Origin: Comamonadaceae bacterium | Lineage (GTDB): Bacteria > Pseudomonadota > Gammaproteobacteria > Burkholderiales > Burkholderiaceae_C | Reading direction: 5' to 3' | NCBI GenBank assembly: GCA_947372005.1 | Contig: CANBRV010000001.1 | Location: 1 to 24,273, forward strand | Length of the DNA stretch: 24,273 nt | Part shown: positions 3,623-19,553 of the stretch, piece by piece | Position numbering within the stretch: the stretch's first letter is position 1 | Layout of the letters: each line of letters opens with the position of its first letter | Notes under the pieces: generated by a model | The model's input: only the letters and a program-made list of their open reading frames with translations | The model's database searches: none | Told to the model about the DNA's origin: nothing | Position numbers and translations under genes: made by a program

Positions 3623-3629
3623 AAAATTT

Positions 3630-4394: not shown

Positions 4395-6437
4395 ATGATT
4401 GAGCTGAGCTACCTCCAACAAAATTACGAAGTACTAGCGAATACCTTCGCACAAAACCCATCGGCCTTTGCTATAGGGTTTTTTGCGGTGTACGTGCTCG
4501 TGACGGCGTTGTCACTTCCGCTTGCCACGCTGCTTACGCTCTTGGCTGGCGCTTTGTTTGGTTTCTTACCAGGCATGCTGTTGGTGTCATTTGCGTCGGC
4601 CATTGGTGCAACAGCTGCGATGCTAATTGCGCGTTTTGTTTTTTCGCGTTTGATTTTGCAAAGATTTGGCTCTTACCTAGAGACGATTAATCAAGGCATA
4701 GAAAAAGACGGTGCGTTTTATTTATTTGCCCTGCGGCTGACACCTGTTGCCCCGTTTTTTATAGTCAATCTGTTGATGGGGTTGACGAAGATTCACGCCT
4801 TCACTTTTTATTGGGTCAGTCAGATCGGCATGCTTGCTCTCAGCGCTGTGTATGTCAATGCTGGCACTCAGCTGAAGACGTTGACATCGCTGTCAGGCAT
4901 CGCTAGCCCCATGCTTTTAGGCTCATTGGCGCTGGCTGGCATTGCACCGTTGTTGCTTAAAAAAATGATGGCCTGGATGATGGCTGCACGAGCTAAGGCC
5001 AATATCTATAAGCCTTGGCAAGAGGCGCGCCCTAGATCTTTTGACCGCAACTTGATTGTGATTGGCGGCGGTGCTGGCGGTCTTGTGTCTGCCTATATTG
5101 CCGCCGCAGTTAAAGCCAAAGTGACGCTGATTGAGGCGCACAAAATGGGTGGCGATTGTTTGAACTACGGCTGCGTGCCTAGCAAGGCGCTCATTAAAAG
5201 CGCCAAGGTCGCGCATCAAATGCGCCACGCGTCTCGCTATGGTTTGCAAAATACGGAGACAGCGCTTAGCTTCAAAGCAGTGATGGCGCGTGTACATCGT
5301 GTGATTGCCGAGATTGAACCGCACGACAGCATTGAACGCTACACAAACTTGGGTGTAGAGGTGTTGCAAGGCTACGCAAAAATAGTGAATCCGTGGACGG
5401 TTGAGGTCGCACTAAGCAACGGAGGCAAGCAAACATTGACGGCACGTTCAATTGTGATTGCCACGGGGGCATCCCCTTTTGTACCGCCGCTTGCAGGCAT
5501 AGAAGCTTCAGGGTATTTGACCAGCGATACGTTGTGGGATGCGTTTGCGAAACTGGACGCAATCCCCAAGCGAATCACGATTCTTGGTGGTGGTCCGATC
5601 GGGTGCGAGCTCGCGCAAGCCTTGCAGCGCTTGGGCGCCACTGTGACACTCATCGAGCAAGGGGACCGCTTGTTAATCCGCGAGGACGCGGATGTGTCTA
5701 ACTTTGCAAAGGCGGCGTTAGAAGCGGACGGCGTGCGTGTACTCACCAATCACACCATTGATCTTGGTCACCCAGACTATGACGCGCTCATCGTCGCAGT
5801 GGGTCGCTCGGCAAGACTGGACGGCTATGGCTTAGAGGCGCTTGGCATACCTGTCCACAAGACAATTGAAACGAATGAGTACTTGCAAACCATCTACCCC
5901 AATATTTATGCCGCAGGCGATGTGGCGGGGCCATATCAGTTTACCCACGTGGCTGCACATCAGGCTTGGTACGCGGCAGTCAATAGCTTGTTTGGCGGCT
6001 TCAAAAAGTTCAAAGTTGATTACTCGGTTATTCCAAGCGCTACGTTTATTGACCCCGAGATTGCACGCGTGGGTTTGAGTGAGCAGGACGCAAAGGCGCA
6101 AGGCGTGGCTTACGAAGTCACCAAATATGGCATAGATGATTTAGATCGCGCGATTGCTGATAGCGCTGCCGAGGGCTTTGTCAAAGTGCTCACGGCGCCT
6201 GGTAAAGACAAAATTTTGGGCGTGACGATTGTGGGCAGCAACGCCGCAGAGTTACTCGCCGAATACGTGCTGGCCATGAAGTATGGCCTCGGTTTAAACA
6301 AAATTTTAGGCACGATTCACACCTACCCCACCTTCTCAGAAGCCAATAAATACGCGGCTGGCGAGTGGAAGCGGACGCATCAACCGACTCGCCTTTTAGC
6401 GTGGGTTAAACGCTTTCACGATTGGCGGCGGGGTTAG
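4395..6437 (+). CDS. Fusion of a DedA/VTT (TVP38/TMEM64, SNARE-associated) membrane domain with a class-I flavin disulfide oxidoreductase (LpdA/MerA-like)
   Basis: About the first 190 aa are hydrophobic, with LFALRLTPVAPFFIVNLLMGLT. These are followed by GGGAGG (FAD), redox CLNYGC (5157-5174), GGGPIGCE (NAD(P)H), IYAAGDVAGPYQFTH and HTYPTFSE. There is no MerA C-terminal Cys-Cys pair. Confidence 0.88.
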   Translation: MIELSYLQQNYEVLANTFAQNPSAFAIGFFAVYVLVTALSLPLATLLTLLAGALFGFLPGMLLVSFASAIGATAAMLIARFVFSRLILQRFGSYLETINQGIEKDGAFYLFALRLTPVAPFFIVNLLMGLTKIHAFTFYWVSQIGMLALSAVYVNAGTQLKTLTSLSGIASPMLLGSLALAGIAPLLLKKMMAWMMAARAKANIYKPWQEARPRSFDRNLIVIGGGAGGLVSAYIAAAVKAKVTLIEAHKMGGDCLNYGCVPSKALIKSAKVAHQMRHASRYGLQNTETALSFKAVMARVHRVIAEIEPHDSIERYTNLGVEVLQGYAKIVNPWTVEVALSNGGKQTLTARSIVIATGASPFVPPLAGIEASGYLTSDTLWDAFAKLDAIPKRITILGGGPIGCELAQALQRLGATVTLIEQGDRLLIREDADVSNFAKAALEADGVRVLTNHTIDLGHPDYDALIVAVGRSARLDGYGLEALGIPVHKTIETNEYLQTIYPNIYAAGDVAGPYQFTHVAAHQAWYAAVNSLFGGFKKFKVDYSVIPSATFIDPEIARVGLSEQDAKAQGVAYEVTKYGIDDLDRAIADSAAEGFVKVLTAPGKDKILGVTIVGSNAAELLAEYVLAMKYGLGLNKILGTIHTYPTFSEANKYAAGEWKRTHQPTRLLAWVKRFHDWRRG

Positions 6438-7264
6438 CCTAAGATGCGCCGAATCCAGTAACTCAGCGCATCCACCAGCACAACGAGTGCGAGCATTGCC
6501 AAGAGCACCGAGCTGGTCTCTGCCATTTGAAACAGGCTCATGTGGAACGACAGCATCGCGCCTAGCCCCCCTGCGCCGACTACGCCCAGCACAGCGGCTG
6601 CGCGGATATTGTTTTCCCAGCGGTAGAGCGTGTAGCTAATGAGCTGAGGCATGATTTGCGGCAGCGTAGCGTAGAAAAAAATCTTGAGTTCGCCGACGCC
6701 ACTCGTCCGCAAAGCCATAGCGGGTGAGCCCTCCGCGTTTTCTATTGCCTCAGCAAACAAGCGCCCGAGCACGCCACTGGTATGTAGCGCCAGCGCCAAC
6801 GTGCCCGCCATGGGCCCTAGTCCCGCTGCAATCAAAAGCAAGGTTGCCCATATCAATTCGGGAATGCTACGCAGCGCATTGAGCACCGCACGTGTGATGG
6901 TGCGAACTGCACCTCGGCCACTGGCAGGAAGTGCCAGCAACAGTCCGAGCACCACCGCAAGTAAGGTACCAAGTGCCGACATGGCGAGTGTCTCTAGAGT
7001 TGCCCACGACAGCTTGCTTAAAAAAGAACCTTCAAAATTTGGCGTTAGCAGTTCAGCGACAAAGCGCCCCATTTTTTGCATGGCATCGACTGACAAGAAC
7101 TTGCCCCACTGTAAATCTAGCGACCAAAAGCTAGCGATAGTGAGTAGCGCAATGAAGAGGACATACCAGCATGCTTTGCAGCGTGCACTCCAAAGCGGTG
7201 GAGGTAACTGAGCAGGCAATTGAGCAGCTAAGCGCTTGCGGGTCATGTCTGGTGTAGCTTTCAA
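6434..7264 (-). CDS. ABC transporter permease, PhnE/PtxC-like (second permease)
   Basis: LRSIPELIWA, GLGPMAGTLALALHTSGVLGRLFAEAIE (EAA loop) and YRWENNIRAAAVLGVVGAGGLG. Start is TTG 7264 (overlapping the upstream stop) or ATG 7246. Confidence 0.9.
   Translation of the reverse strand: MKATPDMTRKRLAAQLPAQLPPPLWSARCKACWYVLFIALLTIASFWSLDLQWGKFLSVDAMQKMGRFVAELLTPNFEGSFLSKLSWATLETLAMSALGTLLAVVLGLLLALPASGRGAVRTITRAVLNALRSIPELIWATLLLIAAGLGPMAGTLALALHTSGVLGRLFAEAIENAEGSPAMALRTSGVGELKIFFYATLPQIMPQLISYTLYRWENNIRAAAVLGVVGAGGLGAMLSFHMSLFQMAETSSVLLAMLALVVLVDALSYWIRRILG
7202..7225. repeat. 12-bp imperfect tandem duplication encoding AQLP-AQLP
   Basis: AGGTAACTGAGC (7202-7213) and AGGCAATTGAGC (7214-7225), 10 of 12 identical. 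Confidence 0.7.
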
Positions 7265-8109
7265 GACAGCCCCTCCCGAAAGCGGCTACTGGCGCGGTCT
7301 GCCAGCCACACTAAAAGCATAAATATGAGCAACATCGTGCTGACTTCAGAGCCATTAAACATCTTCATCGAGGCATCCATTTGTTGCCCAAGTCCGCCCG
7401 CGCCCACAAAGCCCAGCACAGCGGACGAACGAATCGCGCACTCCCAGCGGTAAACGGTGTAGCTCGTCAGTTCCGCCGCGCTTTGCGGGAGTAAGCCATA
7501 AAAAAATGCTTGCAAGCGACCTGTGCCATTGCGTAGCAAGCTGTGCGTGACGGTAGGATCGCTGGATTCCAAAATCTCGCCGTAAACCTTGCCCAGCATG
7601 CCCGTATAAGTGAGCGCAATTGCCAGCACGCCAGCCGTGGGCCCTAGCCCGACGACACGAACAAAGATCAGCGCCCAAATGAGTTCGGGCACGCTACGCA
7701 GCACAATCAGTAGCCAGCGTGTCGCAGTGCGAATCGCGCCTGAGCCAATTCCCATATGGCCTGCAAGCCCGCTGACGGATAGCACGCGTGCCGTAATGAG
7801 TGAAAGCGGAATTGCAACAATGAGCGCGAGCGCAATGCCCGCCGTTGCCATGGCGACCGTGCGCCAAGTCTCGCGTGCCACCATCAGCAAAAACTCAGGC
7901 TCTAATTTGGGTGGAAAAAAATCAGCTAAAAATTTGAGCGTGGGTTTCAAGCTCTCTGCGGAAAACAGCGTCCAAATTTTGAATTCCGTTAGCACCAGCA
8001 TCGGCCACAGCAGCACGGCGGCGACGGCGATCCAAAAGACGCGACCCAAAAAAGCAGGATCACGCACTGGCGCGTGAGCAGGATCACGGAGGGCCTTAGG
8101 TAAGCTCAT
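7261..8109 (-). CDS. ABC transporter permease, PhnE/PtxC-like (first permease, 282 aa)
   Basis: LRSVPELIWA, GLGPTAGVLAIALTYTGMLGKVYGEILE and YRWECAIRSSAVLGFVGAGGLG. ATG 8109 is preferred because residues 1-26 of the track ORF lie within the ATPase gene. Confidence 0.9.
   Translation of the reverse strand: MSLPKALRDPAHAPVRDPAFLGRVFWIAVAAVLLWPMLVLTEFKIWTLFSAESLKPTLKFLADFFPPKLEPEFLLMVARETWRTVAMATAGIALALIVAIPLSLITARVLSVSGLAGHMGIGSGAIRTATRWLLIVLRSVPELIWALIFVRVVGLGPTAGVLAIALTYTGMLGKVYGEILESSDPTVTHSLLRNGTGRLQAFFYGLLPQSAAELTSYTVYRWECAIRSSAVLGFVGAGGLGQQMDASMKMFNGSEVSTMLLIFMLLVWLADRASSRFREGLS
8053..8088. repeat. 12-bp perfect direct repeat (AGCAGGATCACG) with 24-bp period, encoding RDPA-HAPV-RDPA in the permease N-terminus
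   Basis: Copies at 8053-8064 and 8077-8088, read directly from the sequence. Confidence 0.85.
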
Positions 8110-8860
8110 CGAGATGCTGGGCATACAAATCTTGGAGCCGCTCGGGCGTGACCTGGCTTGTCGGCAAATCAAACGCCAGCTCGCCATTCTTCAATCCGAT
8201 GATGCGCGGAAAATGCGCAAGCGCCATCTGCACGTGATGTAGTGTTGCGACCAGTGTCACGCCGCGCGCCCTTGCGTTGCCTGTCAAAGTCTCGATGGCT
8301 TGAACAGCACGCGCTGGGTCAAGTGCAGACAGCGGCTCGTCAATTAACCACAGCTTGCTATCAGATACCAATCCTCTTGCAAGCCCCACCCGCTGGCGTT
8401 CACCGCCCGATAGTCTATCCACGCGCTCAAACAATTTATCGGCTAAATCAAATTGCGCTAGCGCCTGCTGCGCCGTTGGAATATCGACTGGATAAAACAA
8501 ACTGCGGAGGCTCGTCCAAAACCCCATGCGCGGCAATTGCCCCGCCAGCACGCTGGTGACGACGCGCTGTCGCGGCGGCAGGGGCGGTACTTGCGGCGCC
8601 AAAAATAAATCACCGCGAAGGCGTTGCAAATCATTTTTTGCAAGTTGCCACGGGTCGTGCTCATCCAACTTCAATGAGCCTGTCGCTGGAATCAAGGCAC
8701 ACGCCAGTAAGGAAAGCAGAGTCGTCTTGCCCGCACCAGAAGGGCCAATGACCGCAACTTTTTCGCCCGCATTTATGGTCAGCGTGATCGGCTGCAAAGC
8801 CAAGCTGGCTGAGGCTGCAGCGGGATGTCTGCCTGCTGCGGCGAGCAGTTCAATCTTCAT
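8096..8860 (-). CDS. ABC transporter ATP-binding subunit, PhnC-like
   Basis: Walker A GPSGAGKT, signature LSGGERQRV, Walker B/D-loop WLIDEPLSALD and H-loop LHH. Confidence 0.93.
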   Translation of the reverse strand: MKIELLAAAGRHPAAASASLALQPITLTINAGEKVAVIGPSGAGKTTLLSLLACALIPATGSLKLDEHDPWQLAKNDLQRLRGDLFLAPQVPPLPPRQRVVTSVLAGQLPRMGFWTSLRSLFYPVDIPTAQQALAQFDLADKLFERVDRLSGGERQRVGLARGLVSDSKLWLIDEPLSALDPARAVQAIETLTGNARARGVTLVATLHHVQMALAHFPRIIGLKNGELAFDLPTSQVTPERLQDLYAQHLDELT

Positions 8861-8868
8861 TTTGAACG

Positions 8869-9711
8869 TTACTTAATCAAACCCGCGCTACGGCCAGCTG
8901 CTTCAATGCCTTTGTAGTTGTCCGCCTTGGTGGGAATAAACCGCGTCGCACGTTGCAAGTCCAAAATCGATTTTCCTTCAGACGTATTCGCGTTTAAATC
9001 CAAAAATGCTTTGGTCAGTTTCTCGCGCAGGGCGGCGGGCATGTCGGCGTGGACTGTCCAGTTGTAATCAAAGTAGGCGGGCGTGGTGTAGAACACGTTA
9101 ACTTTGCTTGCATCCACTTTTTTGTCTGCCACAAACTTATCCCACACAGAGATATTGAGCGCACCCGCATCGACCTTGCCTGCGGCTACGGCTGCAATAG
9201 TGGCATCGTGTGCGCCCGAAAACGCCACGCGTTTGAGGTCAGTATCAGGATTGATTTTTGCATCCAACAAAAACTTGCGCGGCATCAAATGCCCCGAGGT
9301 GCTGGAGGCCGAACCGAAGGACAGCGTATGGCCTTTGAGGTCAGCGAGTGTTTTGATCGTGGGGTCGCTGGTGATAAATACAGAGCGAAATTTCTCGTCT
9401 TCTTCGCGCTGCACAAGCGGAATCATCTTGCCACCCGAGCGGATATTGGCTTGCACAAAAGTAAAACCGCCAAACCATGCTAAATCGATTTGCTTGTTGG
9501 CAAGCGCCTCGACTGATGCAGCGTAGTCGGACACGGGCGTGAACTCGACCTTCATTCCTAATTTAGTTTCAAGATATTTCACCAGCGGCGCGGCCTTACG
9601 GGCGAGTTCGGTGGGCGACTCGTCGGGGATGGCGGTGACTTTAAAAACAGCTTGCGCTGATACACCGAAAGCACAGAGAGAGAGAAGCAGTGCAGATAAA
9701 AATTTCAACAT
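8869..9711 (-). CDS. Periplasmic substrate-binding protein of the PhnD/PtxB superfamily, resembling the SelD-linked 'putative selenate ABC transporter' clade
   Basis: Sec signal peptide MLKFLSALLLSLCAFGVSA, AIPDESPTEL, DLAWFGGFTFVQA, oxyanion-binding SSTSGHLMP, SGAHDA and YFDYNW. SD-like AAGGGA lies upstream. The clade is assigned from recalled family sequence and gene context. Confidence 0.85.
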   Translation of the reverse strand: MLKFLSALLLSLCAFGVSAQAVFKVTAIPDESPTELARKAAPLVKYLETKLGMKVEFTPVSDYAASVEALANKQIDLAWFGGFTFVQANIRSGGKMIPLVQREEDEKFRSVFITSDPTIKTLADLKGHTLSFGSASSTSGHLMPRKFLLDAKINPDTDLKRVAFSGAHDATIAAVAAGKVDAGALNISVWDKFVADKKVDASKVNVFYTTPAYFDYNWTVHADMPAALREKLTKAFLDLNANTSEGKSILDLQRATRFIPTKADNYKGIEAAGRSAGLIK

Positions 9712-9735
9712 GAAAAATCCCTTAAAAATAACAGT

Positions 9736-10788
9736 CTATTTTCCACAACTTCTAAACCCTGCAAAAATATCTGTCCGATCGGGCGTAAAAAAGTTTCGAT
9801 ACTTGGGATGCACCATACGCGCCGACGTAGCAATCGATGCGCCGCGTAAGACTTTGCGCGAGCCAAACCATGGCTCAGAATAGTCTTTATACGCATGTGC
9901 CGTAAAGCTAGGGTACGGCTCGAATGTGCTGTCTGTCCACTCCCACACCTCGCCCCACTTGAAATTTGAGTTAGACATTGCGGAGCATTCCCACTCAGCC
10001 TCACTGGGCAATCGCCTGTCAGCCCAATCGCACCAAGCCTTAGCATCAAACCAATTGATGTGAACAGCTGCATCGTTTGGGTTCCCCACGAGACGCGGCA
10101 TCTCGCGGCCCGTCGCCCGTGCAAACGGCAAATACTCGGCCCACGTGACGACTCGCGAATCAATCTCAAAAGCAGGTAATGCGACTTCGTGCTGCGAGAG
10201 TTCGTTGTCGAACGCAAAGCCCTCATTTGTGGAACCCAACCACCACTTGCCCTCTGGCATAGATAGGCTGGACTTCGTCGGCTGCTTTGACTTGGAAGCC
10301 ATACGTAGCAAGGTTTGCGGGACAGGCACATTTAAAAACTCTGCTGAATAAATGGCCGCTTCCGCGTGCATGTCTTCGTGAAAAAGCACGAGGCGATAAA
10401 AGTACAGCGTTTCGTCAGAATCCGTTTTTTCTGCTGCAAGTTTGGTGAGAATGTCGTCCAGACTGACTTGCATCAGCGCCTTGGTTTGCTCAAAGGTTGG
10501 CAGCGGTAAATCCCAGCGCGTGTCGTGCGGGACGTGGCTTGAGTCATATAGCACGTCGTATGCAAGTAAATCATGAAAGCCGCGCCAAGTTTGTGGACAT
10601 AGCCAGTGATCGGCAAACCACGCGATGTGTCCGAGTTCCCATAGCGGCGGGTTGAGCGTTGCAAGCCTTGGCACGGTGAGCGACTCGCCAAGCGCTGCTG
10701 CGTAAGCATCTGCCAGTGTCATCGTACGAGCACGCGCTTGGCGTAGCATGTGGGCAAGTTCGGCGGCACTGGCGGTTCGGGCATTCAT
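9736..10788 (-). CDS. senA: Selenoneine synthase SenA-like non-heme iron enzyme (DinB-2 plus FGE-sulfatase domains, 350 aa)
   Basis: LNPPLWELGHIAWF, YDSSHVPHDTRWDLPLP, iron motif FHEDMHAE and C-terminal WGEVWEWT...DYSEPWFG...YRNFFTPDRTDIFAGFRSC match my recollection of Variovorax SenA rather than EgtB. senB and selD are in the same locus. Start is ATG 10788 or GTG 10797. Confidence 0.85.
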   Translation of the reverse strand: MNARTASAAELAHMLRQARARTMTLADAYAAALGESLTVPRLATLNPPLWELGHIAWFADHWLCPQTWRGFHDLLAYDVLYDSSHVPHDTRWDLPLPTFEQTKALMQVSLDDILTKLAAEKTDSDETLYFYRLVLFHEDMHAEAAIYSAEFLNVPVPQTLLRMASKSKQPTKSSLSMPEGKWWLGSTNEGFAFDNELSQHEVALPAFEIDSRVVTWAEYLPFARATGREMPRLVGNPNDAAVHINWFDAKAWCDWADRRLPSEAEWECSAMSNSNFKWGEVWEWTDSTFEPYPSFTAHAYKDYSEPWFGSRKVLRGASIATSARMVHPKYRNFFTPDRTDIFAGFRSCGK

Positions 10789-10800
10789 GCCGTGCACTGT

Positions 10801-10838
10801 AATGTATGGGCCAATTGTGCGACGAAGATGTGTACATT
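10801..10838. promoter_or_regulatory. Candidate divergent promoter region with mirrored TACATT (-10-like) hexamers
   Basis: AATGTA at 10801-10806 (TACATT on the minus strand, facing senA) and TACATT at 10833-10838 (plus strand, facing egtB). No convincing -35 element. Confidence 0.3.
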
Positions 10839-10861
10839 CATTTTTATTCAGGAAATTCCCC

Positions 10862-12163
10862 TTGAGTCCTACCGAATTTGTTAGCGTTTACCGCGCCGTC
10901 AGAGCGCAAAGCCTAGAGCTCACAGCGCACCTAAGCCTCGAAGACATGGCCTTGCAATCCATGCCCGACGCCAGCCCGACCAAATGGCATTTGGCGCACA
11001 CGACTTGGTTTTTTGAAGTCGTGGCGCTTAAAAAATGGCATGCAGACTATGAAGGCTTTAATATCGCCTATGCGTATTTGTTTAACTCGTACTACGAAGC
11101 GCTAGGCGATCGTCAACCGCGTCCGCTACGCGGCATATTGTCGCGCCCCGCCTTGATGGACGTGTTGGCGTATCGCGAACGAGTCGATAACGCCTTGCAG
11201 GACTGGCTACAAAAGGTGAGCCCATCCGATTGGATACAAGCGCAGCCCTTGCTGGTGCTGGGCTTACACCACGAGCAGCAGCACCAAGAACTCATCGTCA
11301 CAGATATGCTGCATCTCTTGGCGCAAAACCCGCTCTTGCCAACATGGTCGCCGCCCTCTATCAGGCGTGCACAACAGTCGTCTGTGCCACTTTCATCTGC
11401 ACCGCTTGCGTGGCTAGAGCACGCTGGTGGCGTGCAGATGGTAGGTACGAACGAGCAGGCGGGCGTCTTTGCATTTGACAACGAGTGTCCCAATCACCCC
11501 GTATGGATTGAGCCGTTTGCCATAGCGAATCGCTTAGTTAATTGCGGCGAATACCTCACCTTTATGGAGGACGGCGGTTATGAGCGGCCAGAATTTTGGT
11601 TATCGGAAGGCTGGGCACGTGTGCAGCAGGACGACTGGCATGCGCCGCTCTATTGGGTGAGTGCGAGTGATAAACGTCTTGATTTTTGCACCGAGACAAG
11701 CCAAGCGCAGCAAGGCTTAGCAAGCGATTGGTCTGTGTATGGCGTGCACGGTTTGCAGACTTTACAAGCGCATGAAGCCGTAACGCATCTGAGCTTTTAT
11801 GAAGCCAGTGCCTACGCGGCTTGGGCGGGTGCTAGGCTGCCAACCGAATTTGAGTGGGAAGTGCTAGCCCAAGCGCAGCAAGGCGCAGCGAGCAGCGACA
11901 GCCTGCAAGATTTATACGGAGTGGCTTGGCAGTGGACACGCTCGTCATACGATCCCTATCCGCACTTCAAGCCCATGACGGGCGAGGTTGCCGAGTACAA
12001 CGGCAAGTTCATGGTCGGGCAATTGGTGCTGCGTGGGTCGAGCGCTTTCACGCCGCTTGAACCCTTCGCGCATACCAGGGCGACTTATCGCAATTTCTTT
12101 CCACCTGCTGCGCGATGGCAATGCACAGGACTTCGTTTGGCCAAGGACAAGAGCACGTTATGA
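10862..12163 (+). CDS. egtB: Ergothioneine sulfoxide synthase EgtB, type-II-like (433 aa)
   Basis: QSMPDASPTKWHLAHTTWFFE, LFNSYY loop (11081-11095), iron motif HHEQQHQE, FAFDNE, YNGKFM and RATYRNFF...RWQCTGLRLA. TTG 10862 has AGGAAA 6 nt upstream. The track start at 10748 overlaps senA and is unlikely. Confidence 0.9.
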   Translation: MSPTEFVSVYRAVRAQSLELTAHLSLEDMALQSMPDASPTKWHLAHTTWFFEVVALKKWHADYEGFNIAYAYLFNSYYEALGDRQPRPLRGILSRPALMDVLAYRERVDNALQDWLQKVSPSDWIQAQPLLVLGLHHEQQHQELIVTDMLHLLAQNPLLPTWSPPSIRRAQQSSVPLSSAPLAWLEHAGGVQMVGTNEQAGVFAFDNECPNHPVWIEPFAIANRLVNCGEYLTFMEDGGYERPEFWLSEGWARVQQDDWHAPLYWVSASDKRLDFCTETSQAQQGLASDWSVYGVHGLQTLQAHEAVTHLSFYEASAYAAWAGARLPTEFEWEVLAQAQQGAASSDSLQDLYGVAWQWTRSSYDPYPHFKPMTGEVAEYNGKFMVGQLVLRGSSAFTPLEPFAHTRATYRNFFPPAARWQCTGLRLAKDKSTL

Positions 12164-13125
12164 ACCCCACGATCGATATAGAAGTACAGGCCCACAATTT
12201 CGCGACCGACATGCAGGCGGCGCTTGCAAGCGCTAGCAAACAAATCTCACCCAAGTATTTTTATGACGCCAAGGGTTCGCTGCTGTTCGATCAAATTTGT
12301 GAACTGCCCGAGTACTACCCCACGCGCACCGAATGGGCGGTGCTTGAGCAATACGCGCCGCAGATGGCTGAGTGTTTGGGGGCAGATATTGATTTAATTG
12401 AGTTTGGCGCAGGTTCGCTGCGCAAAGTGCGGTTGTTGTTGGATGCTTTAATGGCGCAAAAAACGCCACCTAAAAGCTATGTGCCCATCGACATTTCGGG
12501 CGCGCATTTGGCCGAATCCAGCTTGCAATTGCAAAAGCAATATCCAGCGCTGGGCGTCACGACGTGGGTGTCGGATTATTCGCAGGCCTTAGTGCTGCCG
12601 CCCGCACTAATGCAGGCCAATCGTCGCCGCATGGGATTCTTCCCAGGATCGAGCTTGGGCAACTTTGCACCCGGCGAGGCGCTTGCTTTTATGACCCAAG
12701 CTGCGCAGATGCTTGGCGGCGGCGGTCTGCTGGTGGGCGTCGATTTGGTGAAAGATCCACAAGTACTGCATGCCGCTTACAACGACCAACAAGGCATCAC
12801 GGCTGCGTTCAATTTGAACTTGCTTGCCCGTGCCAATCGCGAGTTAGGTGCTGACTTTGATCTGAATGCATTTGCGCATTACGCTTTTTATGAGCCGCGG
12901 CACCAGCGAATCGAAATGCATTTGCAAAGTCTTCGCGCACAGCACGTGCGGCTGCTCGGGCAGACTTATTCGTTTCGTGAGGGCGAGACCTTGCATACCG
13001 AAAACTCCTACAAATACACGCTGGACAGCTTGCACCAATTAGCCAAGCAGGCAGGCTTTGAGGTGGGTATACATTGGACGGACAGCCAGCAACAGTTTTG
13101 TGTGCAGTGGCTTATCGCTCCCTAG
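12160..13125 (+). CDS. egtD: L-histidine N-alpha-trimethyltransferase EgtD (321 aa)
   Basis: ISPKYFYDAKGSLLFDQICELPEYYPTRTE, IEFGAGS, FFPGSSLGNF, GVDLVKD, AYND..GITAAFNLNLL and HTENSYKYT. ATGA overlap with the egtB stop fixes the start at 12160. Confidence 0.95.
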   Translation: MNPTIDIEVQAHNFATDMQAALASASKQISPKYFYDAKGSLLFDQICELPEYYPTRTEWAVLEQYAPQMAECLGADIDLIEFGAGSLRKVRLLLDALMAQKTPPKSYVPIDISGAHLAESSLQLQKQYPALGVTTWVSDYSQALVLPPALMQANRRRMGFFPGSSLGNFAPGEALAFMTQAAQMLGGGGLLVGVDLVKDPQVLHAAYNDQQGITAAFNLNLLARANRELGADFDLNAFAHYAFYEPRHQRIEMHLQSLRAQHVRLLGQTYSFREGETLHTENSYKYTLDSLHQLAKQAGFEVGIHWTDSQQQFCVQWLIAP

Positions 13126-13157
13126 CACGGTCATTTTTAAATTTTTTGGAGAACAAC

Positions 13158-14594
13158 ATGACAACTCATCGCTGTGACGCACTCATCATTGGCGCGGGAC
13201 AAGCCGCTCCCGCTTTAGCTGTAGCCTTGGCAGGCAGGGGTGAAAAAGTTATTTTGGTGGAAGGCAACCAACTGGGCGGCACGTGCGTGAATGTAGGCTG
13301 CACGCCCACCAAGACGCTGCGTAAAAGTGCGCGCGTGGCTTACATGGCAAGACGCGGCGCAGAGTTTGGCGTCAACACCGGCGCAGTCACGATTGATTTT
13401 GCCAAGGCGATGGACAGGATGCATGAGCGAGTGAACGCTTCGCGCACAGGGCTAGAAGGCTGGCTTGCTAATACCCCTAATGTCACCGTGCTACGCGGCT
13501 GGGGGTCTCTTGCAGGCCATACAGGACAAGGTTTTCAGGCCGTTGTTGATGGCAAGGGTGAGCAGCAGCACATTATGGCAGCTCGTGTGTATTTGAATAC
13601 AGGCACTCGCCCCCTCATGCCACCGATTGAAGGATTGGACAAGCCCGACGCACGCATCTTGAACAACGAGAGCTTGCTGCAATTGCGCGAATGCCCCAAG
13701 CATTTATGCATTTTGGGCGGCAGCTACATTGGCTTAGAGTTTGCGCAAATTTTTAGGCGCTTGGGCGCCGAGGTCACGGTGATTGAACCCAGCCACCGCA
13801 TCGCCATGCGCGAAGACGAAATCGTCACGAATGCCATTACCGATTTTCTGCGGGAAGAAGGCGTGCAGATTTTGACCAGCACCACGCTTGAGAGGGTCGA
13901 TGGCGCTGGCAGCGATTTGCAGCTGCACGTACAAACCAAAAATGCGGACTACAGCTTGCAGACCAACATTCATAAGGCTTCCCACTTACTGGTGGCGACG
14001 GGGCGCTTGCCCAATACAGAGCGATTAAACCTTGCTTCCATTGGTTTGCCAGTCGATGCTCGCGGCTATTTGGATGTGAATGGCCAATTGGAAACGGCCG
14101 TGGCGGGCGTGTGGGCGCTGGGCGATATCAACAAACGCGGTGCGTTTACGCACACCAGCTATCACGACTTTGAAATCGTGCGGGACAACTTAAAAGAGCC
14201 GAACGCCTTGCGCAGTGCCGATGACCGTGTCACGGCGTACGCCATGTTTACCGATCCGCCGCTAGGTCGCGTGGGGCTCAGCCGCTCCGCAGCCAAGGCC
14301 GAGAGCGACAAGTCGGGCAGGCAGTTTTTAATTGCCGAGCACCACATGCGCTTTGTCAGCCGCGCTAAAGAGGAAAGCGAAACGCATGGTGTGATTCAGT
14401 TTATTGTGGACGCGAAGACGGAAAGCTTTGTGGGTGCAACGGTGCTGGGCATCAATGGCGACGAGATCATTCAAGTGGTGAGCAACTACATGGCCACGGG
14501 CGCAAGCTACAAGCTGATGCGCAATTGCTTACCTGTGCATCCGACGGTGACCGAATTCTTCCCCACGATATTGGATAAGCTAGCGGCACTATGA
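13158..14594 (+). CDS. Soluble class-I flavin disulfide oxidoreductase (MerA/LpdA/RclA-like, 478 aa), substrate unknown
   Basis: IIGAGQA (FAD), redox CVNVGC (13284-13301), GGSYIGLE, VWALGD..FTHTS and HPTVTE. GGAG SD lies before ATG 13158. There is no MerA N-terminal metal domain or C-terminal Cys-Cys pair. Confidence 0.88.
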   Translation: MTTHRCDALIIGAGQAAPALAVALAGRGEKVILVEGNQLGGTCVNVGCTPTKTLRKSARVAYMARRGAEFGVNTGAVTIDFAKAMDRMHERVNASRTGLEGWLANTPNVTVLRGWGSLAGHTGQGFQAVVDGKGEQQHIMAARVYLNTGTRPLMPPIEGLDKPDARILNNESLLQLRECPKHLCILGGSYIGLEFAQIFRRLGAEVTVIEPSHRIAMREDEIVTNAITDFLREEGVQILTSTTLERVDGAGSDLQLHVQTKNADYSLQTNIHKASHLLVATGRLPNTERLNLASIGLPVDARGYLDVNGQLETAVAGVWALGDINKRGAFTHTSYHDFEIVRDNLKEPNALRSADDRVTAYAMFTDPPLGRVGLSRSAAKAESDKSGRQFLIAEHHMRFVSRAKEESETHGVIQFIVDAKTESFVGATVLGINGDEIIQVVSNYMATGASYKLMRNCLPVHPTVTEFFPTILDKLAAL

Positions 14595-15586
14595 ATCCAC
14601 CGCGTCCGCACATCGTTATCGTCAGTCCCGCGCTTTCGGACGCGAACAATGGCAATTGGCAAACCGCGAATCGCTGGCGGCAAATGCTGGCCAAAAATTT
14701 CCACTGCCGTATTGTTCAAACATGGCCGGATAAATTTGCCAATCAAGACAACGTAATGATCGCGCTGCATGCCCGCAAGTCGGCTGATTCGATCGCGGCT
14801 TGGCACGCGGCGCATGGCGGCTCGCGCCTCGTGCTGGCGCTGACGGGAACGGATCTCTATCGCGATATTCAAACGAACGCCGCCCCCAAGGCCTCATTGG
14901 CTATGGCTTCGCGTCTCATCGTGCTGCAAGAGCTTGCACCGCTTGGCTTGCCAGAGGTGTGCCGCGCGAAGGCCGAAGTGATCTTTCAATCGACCACAAA
15001 CCAGCCCACACATCTGAAACCAGCGGCGCATTTGAGAGCCGTAATGGTGGGGCATTTGCGAAGCGAGAAATCACCCGAGACTTTGTTTGCTGCGGCCAAA
15101 CTTTTAAATGCGGATGACCCTATCTTCATTGATCACATCGGCGCAGGGCTGGATGCTGATTTGGCAAAGGCGGCCGAAGCGACGGCCAGCGCCTGTCCGC
15201 ATTACCGCTGGCTGGATTCGATGCCGCATGAAACCACGCGCCGAGCCATCCAACGTGCGCATGTGCTGGTACACGCCAGCAAGATGGAAGGCGGTGCGCA
15301 TGTGCTCATGGAGGCGGTGTGCTCGGGCACGCCTGTGCTGGCGTCGCGCATCGACGGCAATGTGGGCATGCTCGGCGCAGATTACGCGGGCTATTTTGAT
15401 TGGGGTGATGCGGCAGGATTGGCGCGGTTATTGCGCGAGTGCCGAGCTAGTCAAAATGACGAAAACGGTCTACTGGCAAGACTTGGCGAGCAATGCACAC
15501 TGCGTGCACCGCTGTTTGCACCAGAGGCTGAGAGTGCTAAATTAAATGCTCTTGTAAATTCCCTAGTTATTGCGCTGTTAGAGTAG
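14591..15586 (+). CDS. senB: Selenosugar synthase SenB (GT-B glycosyltransferase, TIGR04348-like)
   Basis: IVIVSPALSDANNGNWQTANRW, ALHARKSA, LTGTDLYRDI, VMVGHLRSEKSP, SKMEGGAHVLMEA and SRIDGNVGMLG closely match my recollection of Variovorax SenB. Directly upstream of selD. Confidence 0.92.
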   Translation: MNPPRPHIVIVSPALSDANNGNWQTANRWRQMLAKNFHCRIVQTWPDKFANQDNVMIALHARKSADSIAAWHAAHGGSRLVLALTGTDLYRDIQTNAAPKASLAMASRLIVLQELAPLGLPEVCRAKAEVIFQSTTNQPTHLKPAAHLRAVMVGHLRSEKSPETLFAAAKLLNADDPIFIDHIGAGLDADLAKAAEATASACPHYRWLDSMPHETTRRAIQRAHVLVHASKMEGGAHVLMEAVCSGTPVLASRIDGNVGMLGADYAGYFDWGDAAGLARLLRECRASQNDENGLLARLGEQCTLRAPLFAPEAESAKLNALVNSLVIALLE

Positions 15587-15590
15587 ATGG

Positions 15591-17915
15591 ATGCAAGCAT
15601 CTGATCAACCTATTCTTCGAGACATTGTCTTAGTTGGCGGCGGACACAGTCACGTGGTCGCGCTAAAAAGCTTTGCCATGAAACCCATGGTTGGCGTGCG
15701 TCTCACCGTGATTTGCACCGACACGCACACGCCCTACTCGGGTATGTTGCCCGGCTATGTGGCGGGACATTACGACTACGACGCTGTGCATATTGATCTT
15801 GGCAAGCTTTGCGCTTTTGCGGGCGCGCGGCTTTACACGGCGCAAGTGACGGGCATTGACCGCGTGGCAAAAAAGGTGATGTGCAAAGGCCGCCCTGATG
15901 TGGCTTACGACGTGCTGTCCATCAACATTGGATCGAGCCCGCAAGTGCACAGCGTGCCGGGAGCCAATGAATACGCAATCCCCGTCAAACCCATCGCGCA
16001 ATTTAACGAGCGCTGGCTCGCATTACTCGCGCGTAGTGAATCGCCTCTGAGCGTTGCCGTGGTAGGTGGCGGCGCGGGTGGCATAGAGCTTTTGCTAGCA
16101 ATGCAGCACCGAATCAAAAACGCGAGCTTCAGTTTGTTTACCGAAGGCACGGCGATACTGCCAACGCACCATCAGGCTGTGCAAAAACGGTTCATGCAGG
16201 TGCTGGCCGATCGCGACGTGTCGGTTCATTTGAATACACCTGTGACCCAGCTGACGATGCAAGGAAGTCGTCATCAACTCCATAGCAAAACCGAGCAGTT
16301 TTCGTTCGAGGAAGTAATGTGGGTCACGCAAGCGGGCGGTGCTGCGTGGCTTGCGGATACTGGGCTAGCGCTCGATCCTCGCGGTTTTATTGAAGTGAAC
16401 GATTGCCTTCAATCGACAGCGGATGCAAACATTTTTGCCGCAGGTGATATCGCGAACATGGTGAATCACAAGCTGGAGAAGGCGGGTGTGTTTGCGGTGC
16501 GGCAAGGCATGCCGCTGGCGGAGAATTTGCAGCGTAGCGTGCAAGGTGTGGCGCTGAAACCGTATCGTCCACAAAGGCGTTGGCTGGCTTTGATTAGCAC
16601 GGGCGACAAGCAAGCGGTAGCTTCACGCGGCGCGCTTTGGGGATCCGCAACGAAGCTTGGCATGGGCGGCGCAAATGCAAGCGGTGCACTCCTTTGGCGC
16701 TGGAAAGATTGGATCGATCAGCGATTTATGCGTCGCTTCTCCGAGTTTCCTGCGATGGATGAATTAGCCCGTAAGCCACACCCTATAAGGCTTGCAGCAG
16801 GGGCATCTATCAAGCTCACTTCCGAAGAATCACTGCAAGCCATCTCCGCCATTGCCATGCGCTGCGGCGGCTGCGGCGCAAAAGTGGGCGCGACGGTGCT
16901 CTCGCGGGCGCTGGGCAGCCTGTCACCGATTGAACGAGATGATGTGCTGATTGGCTTGCACGCACCCGACGACGCGGCGGTGGTGCGCGTTCCTGCTGGC
17001 AAGGCGATGGTGCACACCGTCGATTTTTTCCGCGCCTTTATCGACGACCCCTACATCTTTGGTCGCGTCGCGGCTAATCATGCACTCGGTGACATCTTTG
17101 CGATGGGTGGCACGGCGCAGTCTGCGACCGCCATTGCCACCGTGCCGCCTGGGCTGGAAGCCAAGGTGGAAGCTACTTTGCGCGACATGATGGCGGGCGC
17201 GGTGGAAGTGCTGAACGCCGCGGGCTGTGCGCTGGTGGGCGGTCACACGGGCGAAGGCAAAGAGTTGGCGTTAGGCTTTGCGATCAATGGACTCGTCGAT
17301 ATTGCGAGTGACGGAATCACACTGCCGCGCACCATGACCAAGGGCGCAATGAAGGCGGGCGATGTGCTCCTCCTCACTAAACCCATGGGCACGGGCACGC
17401 TGTTTGCGGCGCTGCCAAAAGGCAAAGCGAAAGGGCGCTGGATTGATGCGGCGCTTGCCTCGATGCAGCAATCGAACCAAGCGGGAGCCGTATGTTTGTT
17501 GGCTCACGGGGCCACGGCGTGTACCGACCTCACGGGCTTTGGCTTACTCGGGCACTTGGTTGAAATGACGAAGCCATCAGGTGTAGATGCTGAAATTAAT
17601 CTCGCTGCTTTGCCGCTTTTGGATGGTGCGGAAGAGTGCGTTAAAGCAGGGATTACCAGCTCGTTGCAAAGCGCCAATGTGCGGTTGCGCCGAGCGATCA
17701 AAAATCAAGAGGCATTTATCAATCACCCCAGATACCCACTCATTTTTGATCCACAAACGGCGGGTGGTTTGCTAGCGAGTGTGCCCGTAAGCCATGTGGA
17801 TGCTTGCGTGGCGGAGTTGAAAGCGCTGGGCTATACGCACACGGCGATCATTGGGCGCATCTTACCGATGGGTGATGCGGTGGAAGCGATTACTTTAATA
17901 GGAGAGACACCATGA
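15591..17915 (+). CDS. selD: Selenophosphate synthetase SelD/SenC fused to an N-terminal pyridine nucleotide-disulfide/NADH-dehydrogenase-like flavoprotein domain
   Basis: N-terminal LVGGGHSHV, PYSGMLPG, VVGGGAGGIE, IFAAGD and KAGVFAVRQG. The SelD part has MRCGGCGAKVG (16857-16889), PDDAAV, HTVDFF, NHALGDIFAMGG, LVGGHT, TDLTGFGLLGHL and DPQTAGGLL. Confidence 0.95.
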   Translation: MQASDQPILRDIVLVGGGHSHVVALKSFAMKPMVGVRLTVICTDTHTPYSGMLPGYVAGHYDYDAVHIDLGKLCAFAGARLYTAQVTGIDRVAKKVMCKGRPDVAYDVLSINIGSSPQVHSVPGANEYAIPVKPIAQFNERWLALLARSESPLSVAVVGGGAGGIELLLAMQHRIKNASFSLFTEGTAILPTHHQAVQKRFMQVLADRDVSVHLNTPVTQLTMQGSRHQLHSKTEQFSFEEVMWVTQAGGAAWLADTGLALDPRGFIEVNDCLQSTADANIFAAGDIANMVNHKLEKAGVFAVRQGMPLAENLQRSVQGVALKPYRPQRRWLALISTGDKQAVASRGALWGSATKLGMGGANASGALLWRWKDWIDQRFMRRFSEFPAMDELARKPHPIRLAAGASIKLTSEESLQAISAIAMRCGGCGAKVGATVLSRALGSLSPIERDDVLIGLHAPDDAAVVRVPAGKAMVHTVDFFRAFIDDPYIFGRVAANHALGDIFAMGGTAQSATAIATVPPGLEAKVEATLRDMMAGAVEVLNAAGCALVGGHTGEGKELALGFAINGLVDIASDGITLPRTMTKGAMKAGDVLLLTKPMGTGTLFAALPKGKAKGRWIDAALASMQQSNQAGAVCLLAHGATACTDLTGFGLLGHLVEMTKPSGVDAEINLAALPLLDGAEECVKAGITSSLQSANVRLRRAIKNQEAFINHPRYPLIFDPQTAGGLLASVPVSHVDACVAELKALGYTHTAIIGRILPMGDAVEAITLIGETP

Positions 17916-18373
17916 CTAAAAAAACGTTCGAAAATCTATCCGATCTCACAGCTTTTGTCGGCCAAGAAATTGCGGGCGGCGATTGGCTCACCATTACGCA
18001 AGAGCAGGTGAATCTATTTGCCGACGCGACGGGCGATCACCAGTGGATTCACGTCAACCCCGAGTTAGCTGCCAAGGGGCCGTTTAAGACCACCATTGCA
18101 CATGGTTTTTTAACGCTGTCGCTGCTGCCGACATTTTTTGAATCCAGCTTTTCTATTACCAACTCGCGCATGGGCGTGAACTATGGTTTGAACAAAGTGC
18201 GCTTCACCTCGCCCGTGCCTGTGGGCTCGCGTCTGCGTGCTGCAATGAAACTGCTCGCGCTCGACCCTATCGACAACAGCGGCGTGCAGATGACGTGGCT
18301 GGTGACGGTTGAGCGCGAGGGCTCGGACAAGCCCGTGTGCATTGCGGAGTCGTTGGTGAGGCGCTATCCTTAA
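17912..18373 (+). CDS. MaoC/NodN-like hot-dog-fold dehydratase
   Basis: FADATGDHQWIHV, TTIAHGFLTLSLL and NYGLNKVRFTSPVPVGSRLR. ATGA overlap with the selD stop. Confidence 0.9.
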   Translation: MTKKTFENLSDLTAFVGQEIAGGDWLTITQEQVNLFADATGDHQWIHVNPELAAKGPFKTTIAHGFLTLSLLPTFFESSFSITNSRMGVNYGLNKVRFTSPVPVGSRLRAAMKLLALDPIDNSGVQMTWLVTVEREGSDKPVCIAESLVRRYP

Positions 18374-18841
18374 TCATGCGGTTTTAAACCCGCACTGTCG
18401 CCAAGCCTCAAACACCGTCACGGCGACGGCGTTGGATAAATTGAGGCTGCGCTGTCCCTCAATCATCGGCAGTCTGAGGCGCTGCTCGGGCGCAAACGAT
18501 TCACGTAAATCTAGAGGCAAGCCTTGTGTTTCGGAACCAAAGACAAACCAGTCGCCTGCTTGGAAGGCTTGCTGGTAGGGGCTTGCCAAGCCTTTGGTCG
18601 TGAAGGCAAACATGCGCTTAGCCTGCGGGGCAGCAGTCTCTAGAAAGGCTTGCCAATTGGCGTAGCGCGAAACAGGCGAGTACTCGTGATAGTCCAGTCC
18701 CGCGCGGCGCATCTGTTTGTCGCTCATGTCAAAACCCAGCGGCTCAATCAAGTGCAATCGCGAACCCGTGTTGGCGCACAAACGGATGATGTTGCCCGTG
18801 TTGGGCGGAATTTCGGGGGTGACGAGAACGACGTTAAACAT
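18374..18841 (-). CDS. trmL: tRNA (cytidine/uridine-34 2'-O)-methyltransferase TrmL (SPOUT family, 155 aa)
   Basis: PEIPPNTGNIIRLCANTG, RRAGLDYHE, FVFGSETQGLP and RSLNLSNAVAV. ATG 18841 (MFNVVL) is preferred. Confidence 0.93.
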   Translation of the reverse strand: MFNVVLVTPEIPPNTGNIIRLCANTGSRLHLIEPLGFDMSDKQMRRAGLDYHEYSPVSRYANWQAFLETAAPQAKRMFAFTTKGLASPYQQAFQAGDWFVFGSETQGLPLDLRESFAPEQRLRLPMIEGQRSLNLSNAVAVTVFEAWRQCGFKTA

Positions 18842-18848
18842 GTGGTGA

Positions 18849-19553
18849 TTATCTTGGCTCTGATGAGTCATTGCTCTGTTCTAGAGGTGTTCTCGCTATT
18901 ACCAAGCCACCAATCCGCGCAGCACCTGCCCTATAGAGTGGCTCGGCAGCAGCGACTAAGGTCGCACCCGTGGTCATCACGTCGTCAATCAGCAAGATGT
19001 GTTTCCCCACAAGTGACGCGACCTTGCTGCTGTGAGCCCTATCGGACGTGGCTTGCAGAGCAAAGGCGTTGGCGACGTTGCGCACCCGCGCTTCGCGATC
19101 CAGCAGACGCTGGGGCGCCGTGTTGCGGGTGCGAATGAGCGAGGACGCATCAATTTTGTGTTTAACCAAATGCTTGGCGAGCACGTGTGCTTGATTGAAG
19201 CCGCGCTCCTCTAGGCGCTCAGGAGCCAGCGGCAAAGGCATCACGATATCAGCGCCAGCAAGCAAATCACGAATGTGCTCTTCGCGCTCCATCAGTCCTG
19301 CAAACAACCCTGCAAGCCCTGGTTCGGGTGCGAACTTGTATCTGGCGATGAGCGCTGCCCATGGCGCGTCAAAGCTTACGGCTGCGATGCAATCATCAAG
19401 GCCATGTGGCACGGGAAACTGGGGTGCCTTGGCATGTGTTTGAATGCAGGTTCTGCAAACGCCCGTTACCCGTTCAAAAGAAGCGGAGGGCCATTTTTTG
19501 CAGATGGCGCATTCAAAGGGGATGGCTTGCAGAAGCCCTGAAAAAAGAGACAT
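18849..19553 (-). CDS. comF: ComF-family protein (zinc ribbon plus phosphoribosyltransferase domain)
   Basis: CAIC...CRTC, ARYKF, PLPLAPERLEERGFNQA, R.RNVANAF and PRT motif ILLIDDVMTTGATL. Confidence 0.9.
   Translation of the reverse strand: MSLFSGLLQAIPFECAICKKWPSASFERVTGVCRTCIQTHAKAPQFPVPHGLDDCIAAVSFDAPWAALIARYKFAPEPGLAGLFAGLMEREEHIRDLLAGADIVMPLPLAPERLEERGFNQAHVLAKHLVKHKIDASSLIRTRNTAPQRLLDREARVRNVANAFALQATSDRAHSSKVASLVGKHILLIDDVMTTGATLVAAAEPLYRAGAARIGGLVIARTPLEQSNDSSEPR

Follow-up and report, generated by a model that had tools for sequence, protein, structure and literature searches.

A class-I flavoprotein disulfide reductase (FDR) is encoded in a stretch of 24,273 nucleotides from a Comamonadaceae bacterium (GenBank assembly GCA_947372005.1, contig CANBRV010000001.1, positions 1 to 24,273 of the forward strand). 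The whole stretch is called the window below, and its features are collected in Table 1. The original prediction had described a class-I reductase with CVNVGC and HPTVTE motifs inside a biosynthetic operon. This was borne out by an intact open reading frame (ORF) of 478 aa between a bona fide EgtD (TIGR03438) and SenB (TIGR04348). The frame runs from ATG 13158 to TGA 14592–14594 (478 codons), and a GGAG stands 7 nt 5' of the ATG. An upstream TTG start at 13074 was rejected. It overlaps egtD, and the homologues are aligned from residues 2–7. Therefore, the start of the FDR is 13158.

All of the characters of a class-I pyridine nucleotide-disulfide oxidoreductase were found in the FDR, namely the FAD motif (GAGQAA, residues 12–17), the CxxxxC pair, the NAD(P)H motif and the dimerisation domain with the HPxxxE dyad. 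Pfam PF07992, PF00070 and PF02852 all matched, and they span residues 7–468, so that there is no space for a membrane domain. C43 and C48 are aligned with C43 and C48 of E. coli RclA, which are needed for its catalysis (PMC9335216). The FDR has VTVIE-PSHR where Gor has FVRKH, with no NADPH-binding Arg pair after β2. The FDR probably prefers NADH, because Glu210 is aligned with the Glu of Lpd (VVE) and of RclA (ILE), at a site where Gor has Arg/Lys; NADH is also the preferred nucleotide of RclA (PMC9335216). The nearest solved structure is that of E. coli RclA (6KGY, 239 bits, 33% identity). The AlphaFold monomer, based on a 15-sequence alignment, has a pLDDT of 77, with residues 328–368 below 50, and confirms the fold only. 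In the Foldseek search with this model, RclA was the best match (E 1e-40), and the matches to RclA, Lpd and MerA ranged from E 1e-35 to 1e-40. Taken together, the motifs and domains predict a catalytically complete, dimeric class-I flavoprotein disulfide reductase.

The genes on the + strand are closely packed around the FDR. There is a probable ATGA overlap between egtB and egtD (12160–12163), a 32-nt gap between egtD and the FDR gene, an ATGA overlap between the FDR gene and senB, a 4-nt gap between senB and senC, and another ATGA overlap between senC and maoC. The likely start of egtB is TTG 10862; its longest ORF, from 10748, would overlap senA. The longest ORF of egtD begins at 12115, and ATG 12160 gives the ATGA overlap with the egtB stop. 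The overlap of the FDR stop with the senB ATG, which had been pointed out beforehand, was present, and the CTATGAA junction is kept in four orthologous loci (L068, L070, L072 and L086). A promoter and terminator scan of positions 10600–18950 gave fewer matches than shuffled sequences did, and no terminator-like site above chance was found between the + strand genes. Judged from this packing, egtB-egtD-FDR-senB-senC-maoC is predicted to be one tightly packed, co-expressed unit. The organism seems capable of synthesising ergothioneine as well as selenoneine, and the FDR stands mid-way in the shared operon. EgtE (TIGR04343) was not found above its cut-off in the window's own genome, which is 78% complete.

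Table 1. Genes and sequence motifs of the window, with the evidence for each
Feature	Position	Strand	Evidence
TauE/SafE 'sulfite exporter' family gene	3603–4376	+	NCBIfam/Pfam scan
DedA(VTT)-fused second class-I disulfide reductase (DedA-FDR), complete	4395–6437	+	Best match NF004991, 454 bits, cut-off 620
Putative selenate ABC importer: PhnE/PhnE/PhnC and binding protein	6434–9711	-	Binding protein TIGR04553, 413.9 bits
senA, divergent from the egtB operon; heads the putative selenate ABC importer genes	9736–10797	-	NF041186, 421.1 bits, cut-off 420
egtB	10862–12163	+	TIGR03440, 470.8 bits (cut-off 360); SenA NF041186, 291.5 (cut-off 420)
egtD	12160–13125	+	TIGR03438, 401.7 bits, cut-off 290.9
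Class-I flavoprotein disulfide reductase (FDR), 478 aa	13158–14594	+	Pfam Pyr_redox_2, Pyr_redox, Pyr_redox_dim
Redox-active CVNVGC (C43, C48)	13284–13301	+	Read directly; both Cys invariant in 15 clade members
NAD(P)H Rossmann motif GGSYIG (187–192) … VTVIE, Glu210 ending β2	13716–13790	+	Alignment
C-terminal HPTVTE, His461/Glu466 dyad	14538–14555	+	H461 and E466 invariant in the clade
ATGA overlap of FDR stop and senB start (senB ATG 14591–14593)	14591–14594	+	Read directly
senB, selenosugar synthase	14591–15586	+	TIGR04348, 415.5 bits, cut-off 300
senC, pyridine-nucleotide oxidoreductase domain fused to SelD	15591–17915	+	TIGR03169, 475 bits; TIGR00476, 282 bits
MaoC-type dehydratase (maoC)	17912–18373	+	NCBIfam/Pfam scan

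The identity of the FDR was tested with the curated cut-offs of NCBIfam, and a score at or above the cut-off was counted as membership. The FDR was rejected as MerA (TIGR02053, 282.1 bits against a cut-off of 454.45). It has no C-terminal vicinal Cys pair and ends in …FPTILDKLAAL (…HPTVTEFFPTILDKLAAL). The sole Cys near this end, C457, is not conserved among the relatives, and there were no merR/T/P-like genes among the scanned ORFs of the window. On these grounds, the lack of the MerA Cys pair was confirmed, and a 'mercuric reductase' label is unjustified, as had been argued from the start. Four other candidates were likewise rejected: dihydrolipoyl dehydrogenase (TIGR01350, 300.3 bits against 408.8, with no E1/E2 genes in the window), glutathione reductase Gor (NF004776, 245 against 480), mycothione reductase Mtr (NF005884, 249 against 501) and the Har/hypothiocyanous acid (HOSCN) reductase (NF041853, 276.3 against 650). 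The FDR was rejected as RclA as well (NF040477, 306.1 bits against 740); it is 33% identical to E. coli RclA and stands as a sister in the tree, not nested.

These scores also bear on the explanation that the FDR is a housekeeping or mis-neighbouring enzyme, such as lipoamide dehydrogenase E3, glutathione reductase or a true mercuric reductase, that is unrelated to the cluster. Relatives are publicly annotated as 'mercuric reductase' or 'dihydrolipoamide dehydrogenase E3', and the family is labelled 'pyruvate dehydrogenase E3' in a JACS 2026 table (PMC13674229). However, the protein is below every curated cut-off (Lpd 300/409, MerA 282/454, Gor 245/480, Mtr 249/501), lacks the MerA Cys pair and has a conserved neighbourhood, and the genome has its own Lpd on contig C47 (TIGR01350, 464.6 bits). 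This explanation is very improbable. A second Lpd-like gene, on contig C56, is truncated by its contig and scored below the cut-off.

The best NCBIfam match of the FDR was NF004992 (PRK06370.1-4), 'FAD-containing oxidoreductase', with 505.9 bits, under the cut-off of 629. Against this model, scores of 480 to 553 bits were obtained for the window protein and for the eight clade members tested, and scores of 786 to 832 bits for the outer-clade L116, L132 and L149. All eight tested members are under the cut-off; therefore, the egt/sen-linked clade is without a curated model.

The extent of this clade was obtained from a clade-motif scan with one genome per species, which gave at least 80 loci (L092–L171 of the genome collection), and the neighbouring genes were mapped by tblastn. 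A maximum-likelihood tree was built with 91 family rows and with E. coli RclA, Lpd, Gor and the DedA-FDR of the window as references. A locus was taken as linked when egtB/egtD or sen genes lay within 6 kb, and all counts on the tree are those among the matches listed. The phylogeny, which had been proposed earlier as a check, placed the family as sister to RclA, split from Lpd/Gor with an SH-aLRT of 99. The FDR of the window falls in a 25-row clade (SH-aLRT 98), the members of which are at least 51% identical to it. Sixteen of the 25 loci are linked to egtB/egtD or sen, three are only with msr/SelO genes, and six are with neither. In addition, four of four further contigs (57–60% identity) have the gene downstream of egtB-egtD. 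The other 66 rows, composed of the true NF004992 clade and its neighbours, include 7 egt-linked ones (Acidobacteriota, Halieaceae and an Aminicenantes genome). Over the whole tree, 23 of the 91 rows are linked, with at least nine changes of state. The linked rows come from Betaproteobacteria, Gammaproteobacteria, Gemmatimonadota, Myxococcota and Acidobacteriota and show at least six gene orders. These counts include kin, which are not independent: the window's own lineage accounts for six rows, and a single mobile island for two. Judged from the size of genomes, chance alone would be expected to place a given gene within 8 kb of egtD in far fewer than 1% of genomes.

The proposed 'ergothioneine/selenoneine-associated FDR' clade is thus a supported monophyletic group, and the majority of its members among the matches listed are adjacent to egt or sen genes. 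A lack of enrichment next to egt/sen genes had been named beforehand as what would refute the original prediction. The enrichment was strong (16/25 among the matches listed and 4/4 contigs), and Table 1 of the JACS 2026 paper is in line with it. In that table, the genes within 5 kb of all NHISS (EgtB/SenA/OvoA-type) genes were tabulated, with 'Lpd/PRK06370, pyruvate dehydrogenase E3' at 4.0% and DUF427 at 5.7%, and with no comment on function (PMC13674229). Therefore, the co-localisation of Lpd/PRK06370 has been recorded independently and left unexplained. The protein kind is already known, and so is the neighbourhood as one row of the published table. What is new here is a distinct, unmodelled RclA-sister clade with members mostly inside ergothioneine or selenoneine clusters.

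Within the genus, orthologues with 87–90% identity were found in four of the eight other species (G001, G004, G007 and G008). The gene is directly upstream of senB in G001, G004 and G008; in G007 it is also upstream, but separated from senB by one gene, which encodes a 524-aa Glu_synthase-domain (FMN) protein (L071:4192-5766). In G008, senC is missing from the cluster and is replaced by a ROK-family gene on the other strand (L072:6643-7632). The reductase was not found in the three species of the genus without a sen/egt locus. A metagenomic relative, L086 (79% identical), has FDR-senB-senC divergent from senA. Among the matches listed, the senB/SelD linkage is confined to the window's genus and this one metagenomic relative. 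The next-nearest homologues (57–62% identity) belong to Caenimonas soli, Ramlibacter albus and several Burkholderiales metagenome-assembled genomes and have no selenium genes nearby. Their gene order is egtB-egtD-DUF427-FDR(-2OG-Fe_Oxy_2) or egtB-egtD-thiolase-FDR, and egtB-egtD-DUF427-FDR is the usual order in the clade.

This distribution is informative for a selenium-assimilation role, in which the FDR would convert selenite, selenodiglutathione or elemental/persulfide-type Se to selenide for SelD (SenC). Glutathione and thioredoxin reductases can reduce selenite and GS-Se-SG, and the FDR is located upstream of senB in the window's genus and in L086, with senC coming after senB except in G008. 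On the other hand, about 14 loci outside the window's lineage are linked to egtB/egtD without Se genes among the matches listed, and SelD was found within 8 kb in only one (L156) of the 80 matches listed, L092–L171. Besides, SenC already has the fused oxidoreductase domain TIGR03169, the second, DedA-fused reductase is beside the Se importer, and the FDR-senB pair persists in G008 without senC in the cluster. The earlier alternative that the enzyme makes HSe- for SelD was not supported, as the clade outside the window's genus travels with egtB/egtD without selenium genes and SelD carries its own TIGR03169 fusion. The role is considered improbable.

Copies of the gene were also located on mobile DNA. 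On the Comamonas testosteroni plasmid L175 (NZ_CP043574.1 91525-106823), an FDR with 53% identity lies beside an IS1071 transposase in the order msrA-redoxin-SelO-msrB-OsmC-DUF427-FDR-Mo-oxidoreductase-FAD-oxidoreductase-egtB-egtD, where the OsmC gene is an OsmC-hydrolase and a MOSC gene is also present. The FDR of the Thauera contig L101 is identical to this plasmid copy, and the genes around it follow in the same order. A mobile oxidative-stress island seems to be the vehicle on which ergothioneine synthesis is spread. Members of the clade stand repeatedly beside genes for ergothioneine biosynthesis and beside stress genes of the methionine-sulfoxide-reductase/peroxiredoxin kind.

Most egt-linked loci have DUF427 (PF04248) as the gene just upstream of the reductase, and 2OG-Fe_Oxy_2 (PF10014) is often downstream (L091:7711-7992 and 9417-10154; L175:6642-6923; L206–L208). 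The window has neither of them. DUF427 and the FDR seem to form a conserved pair. In one egtB-egtD-DUF427-FDR locus, a betaine-type importer, made up of an OpuAC/permease fusion and an ABC ATPase, is encoded divergently from egtB (L208:1-2329). This importer may be an ergothioneine uptake system beside synthesis and reductase.

Glutathione, mycothiol, trypanothione and coenzyme A have one dedicated reductase each. In the literature searched, neither a reductase for a thione/selone-type imidazole nor a bacterial ergothioneine-recycling enzyme was described. The terms 'ergothioneine reductase' and 'ergothioneine disulfide reductase' did not appear, no paper joined ergothioneine with RclA, and DUF427 was found together with ergothioneine only in the JACS 2026 paper. 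The SenA selenoxide eliminates to a selenenic acid that needs 'reduction or disproportionation', and the in vitro selenoneine reactions contained DTT, with no reductase named (bioRxiv 10.1101/2022.04.13.486033). Ergothioneine disulfide decays via sulfenic and sulfinic acids to hercynine and sulfite (PMC5790434). The oxidised S/Se intermediates that were held to need reduction in the original prediction are a real chemical gap according to these two sources. RclA, the nearest relative that has been characterised, reduces HOSCN with NADH through the same Cys pair (PMC9335216). There is also a precedent, as a Halobacterium gene annotated as 'MerA' is a low-molecular-weight-thiol disulfide reductase, the bis-gamma-glutamylcystine reductase (PMC7278568).

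Our favoured explanation, held at slightly less than an even chance, is that the FDR performs the NADH-dependent reduction of oxidised ergothioneine/selenoneine (sulfenic/selenenic acid, disulfide/diselenide). Still more tentatively, the whole clade may be a dedicated, NADH-dependent bacterial reductase of 2-thio/2-seleno-imidazole antioxidants, which closes the ergothioneine redox cycle and supplies the last reductive step of selenoneine biosynthesis, with DUF427 as a frequent partner. In the proposed mechanism, NADH would reduce FAD, which in turn would reduce the C43-C48 disulfide. The interchange thiolate would then attack the S or Se of the oxidised 2-thio/2-seleno-imidazole, which could be offered as a sulfenic/selenenic acid, as a disulfide/diselenide or in a mixed disulfide. 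The resulting intermediate, an enzyme-S-S(e)-imidazole adduct, would be resolved by the second Cys with the release of thione or selone, and the part of the acid/base would fall to the His461/Glu466 dyad of the partner subunit. This scheme is modelled on glutathione reductase and on RclA, which applies the same chemistry to HOSCN, a sulfenic-acid-type S-OH electrophile. Two roles could result. The enzyme may complete selenoneine formation after SenA (selenoxide to selenenic acid to selenol), and it may recycle both antioxidants after oxidant scavenging. The presence of all the catalytic motifs and the conserved ATGA coupling to senB support this explanation, and so do the within-genus pattern, the clade enrichment, the breadth across phyla and the independent JACS 2026 tabulation. 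The biochemical gap, the RclA chemistry on HOSCN and the Halobacterium 'MerA' precedent support it as well.

Several points weigh against the reduction of oxidised ergothioneine/selenoneine by the FDR. The gene neighbourhood could reflect shared regulation only, and the putative substrate is assigned from context, in a clade known through its sequences. Ergothioneine is mostly a thione and hard to oxidise, so that a dedicated reductase may not be needed. The congener G002 has a sen cluster without the reductase, and the same is true of twelve sen clusters in other genera of the order; therefore, selenoneine synthesis does not depend on the reductase. Among the matches listed, nine of the 25 loci in the clade have no egt/sen genes beside them. 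Five genomes with a non-adjacent clade member were checked for egtD, which was above the cut-off in two of them and was not found at that level in three, and ergothioneine is importable. A Phaeobacter plasmid stress island has the reductase (53% identical) with msrA/msrB/SelO and no egtBD. Therefore, to judge from these three genomes and this island, the enzyme can be of use where no ergothioneine is made locally. As a control, 400 genomes were drawn evenly from the order, and 29 homologue loci with 1.5-kb flanks were obtained. None of these 29 homologues (41–56% identity) had egt/sen genes within 1.5 kb, which speaks against a universal association. The clade at 51% identity or more occurred in only two genomes of this sample.

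Some of the same observations suit the main and serious rival, that the FDR is an RclA/Har-like detoxifying reductase of a small oxidant (HOSCN, chloramines or HOCl-derived species, or Cu(II)), which is only co-regulated in an oxidative-stress regulon and has no thio/seleno-imidazole substrate. The family is sister to E. coli RclA (SH-aLRT 99 against Lpd/Gor), and RclA is the best match in the PDB by sequence and by fold. Clade members are found in islands with msrA, msrB, redoxin, SelO and OsmC, some of them without egtBD, and three clade-carrying genomes are without egtD. However, the identity to RclA is 33%, compared with 47–49% for proven HOSCN-reducing homologues (PMC9335216), the NF040477 score is 306 bits against a cut-off of 740, and no rclB, rclC or rclR is present. 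The egtD-FDR-senB position with translational coupling is tighter than membership of a regulon needs, and so is the egtB-egtD-DUF427-FDR order repeated in several phyla. Moreover, the carriers are free-living freshwater/soil bacteria, for which HOSCN would not be an obvious stress. On balance, the detoxifying role is regarded as rather unlikely, and the overall interpretation of the original prediction, a dedicated reductase for the histidine-betaine thiol/selenol or a selenide supplier, is partly supported.

Further observations were made on the other genes of the window. The arrangement of the DedA-FDR beside the putative selenate importer is kept in the congeners G001 and G004 (L068, L070) with 76–81% identity. 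The TauE/SafE gene flanks the Se/egt locus in congeners too, and another one is in the Phaeobacter oxidative-stress island (L176:11597-12346). A link of this gene to sulfite or selenite export is conceivable, given the decay of oxidised ergothioneine to hercynine and sulfite. The MaoC-type dehydratase is 97–99% identical across congeners, against 82–89% for the sen genes, and may be a housekeeping gene merely sharing the transcript.

The spacer between senA and the + strand operon (10797–10862) is, by eye, a diverged copy of the senA/FDR spacer of congeners, …CATG…ACTGTAATG…ATTCATT…AGGA… (compared in L070:1618-1717, L072:10028-10106 and L086:7929-8001). A pattern search with the senA/FDR intergenic motif of the congeners gave no match at three or fewer mismatches. 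The spacer precedes egtB in the window, but the reductase in G004, G008 and L086. Therefore, egtB-egtD was inserted or deleted exactly between the leader and the reductase. The EgtD of the window is 42–44% identical to that of the congeners, which is located beside senA on the importer side (L068:7880-8800, L069:2182-3120, L070:2786-3649, L072:11200-12108), and 55–59% identical to the Caenimonas-type EgtD. For EgtB, the identity between G001 and the window is likewise only 55%. Two EgtD/EgtB lineages circulate within one genus.

Without reduction, oxidised ergothioneine is lost irreversibly to hercynine and sulfite. The occurrence of the clade inside clusters of several phyla and in mobile oxidative-stress islands makes it a concrete candidate enzyme for this reduction. 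If the proposal is true, a missing redox-cycling step would be added, thousands of 'mercuric reductase' and 'E3' annotations would be corrected, and engineered selenoneine production without chemical reductants would be aided.

The closest known enzymes are E. coli RclA, S. pneumoniae Har and the S. aureus 'MerA' (PDB 6KGY, 8UUB and 8AJJ), which are flavoprotein disulfide reductases for HOSCN and reactive chlorine species. The FDR shares with them the class-I fold, the CxxxxC at the same position, a TPTKTL-type segment after it, the Glu ending the NAD β2 and the HPxxxE dyad. None has a C-terminal redox centre, and the attack on an R-S-OH or R-S-S-R electrophile is likely to be analogous. In contrast to RclA, the FDR has about 19 additional residues behind the active-site helix (residues 58–78), and the clade-specific motifs GDINKRGAFTHTSYHD, SRAKEESETHG and a PTILxKLxxL tail. 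Its neighbours are egt/sen genes instead of rclBC/rclR. The best-scoring model, NF004992, represents a neighbouring clade in the same RclA-sister family, and some of its true members (Acidobacteriota L116 and L149, 786–810 bits) are also beside egtB/egtD. However, the window clade is 42–48% identical to the NF004992 members, to which no function has been assigned.

Gor, Mtr, trypanothione reductase and the Halobacterium bis-gamma-glutamylcystine reductase are similar to the FDR in the fold, the catalytic apparatus and the logic of one reductase per thiol, whereas the FDR scores below all of their cut-offs. It also differs from these low-molecular-weight-thiol reductases in having a Glu, not an Arg pair, at the 2'-phosphate site, from which NADH rather than NADPH is expected, and its proposed substrate is a thione/selone-type imidazole. 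Finally, the window has SenA, SenB and SenC, as does the sen cluster of Variovorax paradoxus (Kayrouz et al.), and all three pass or reach their models. Co-localisation of egtD has been described in a subset of sen clusters (bioRxiv 10.1101/2022.04.13.486033). The canonical cluster is composed of three genes with no reductase, whereas the window has the FDR coupled to senB, a flavoprotein-fusion SenC and an EgtB paralogue in the operon.

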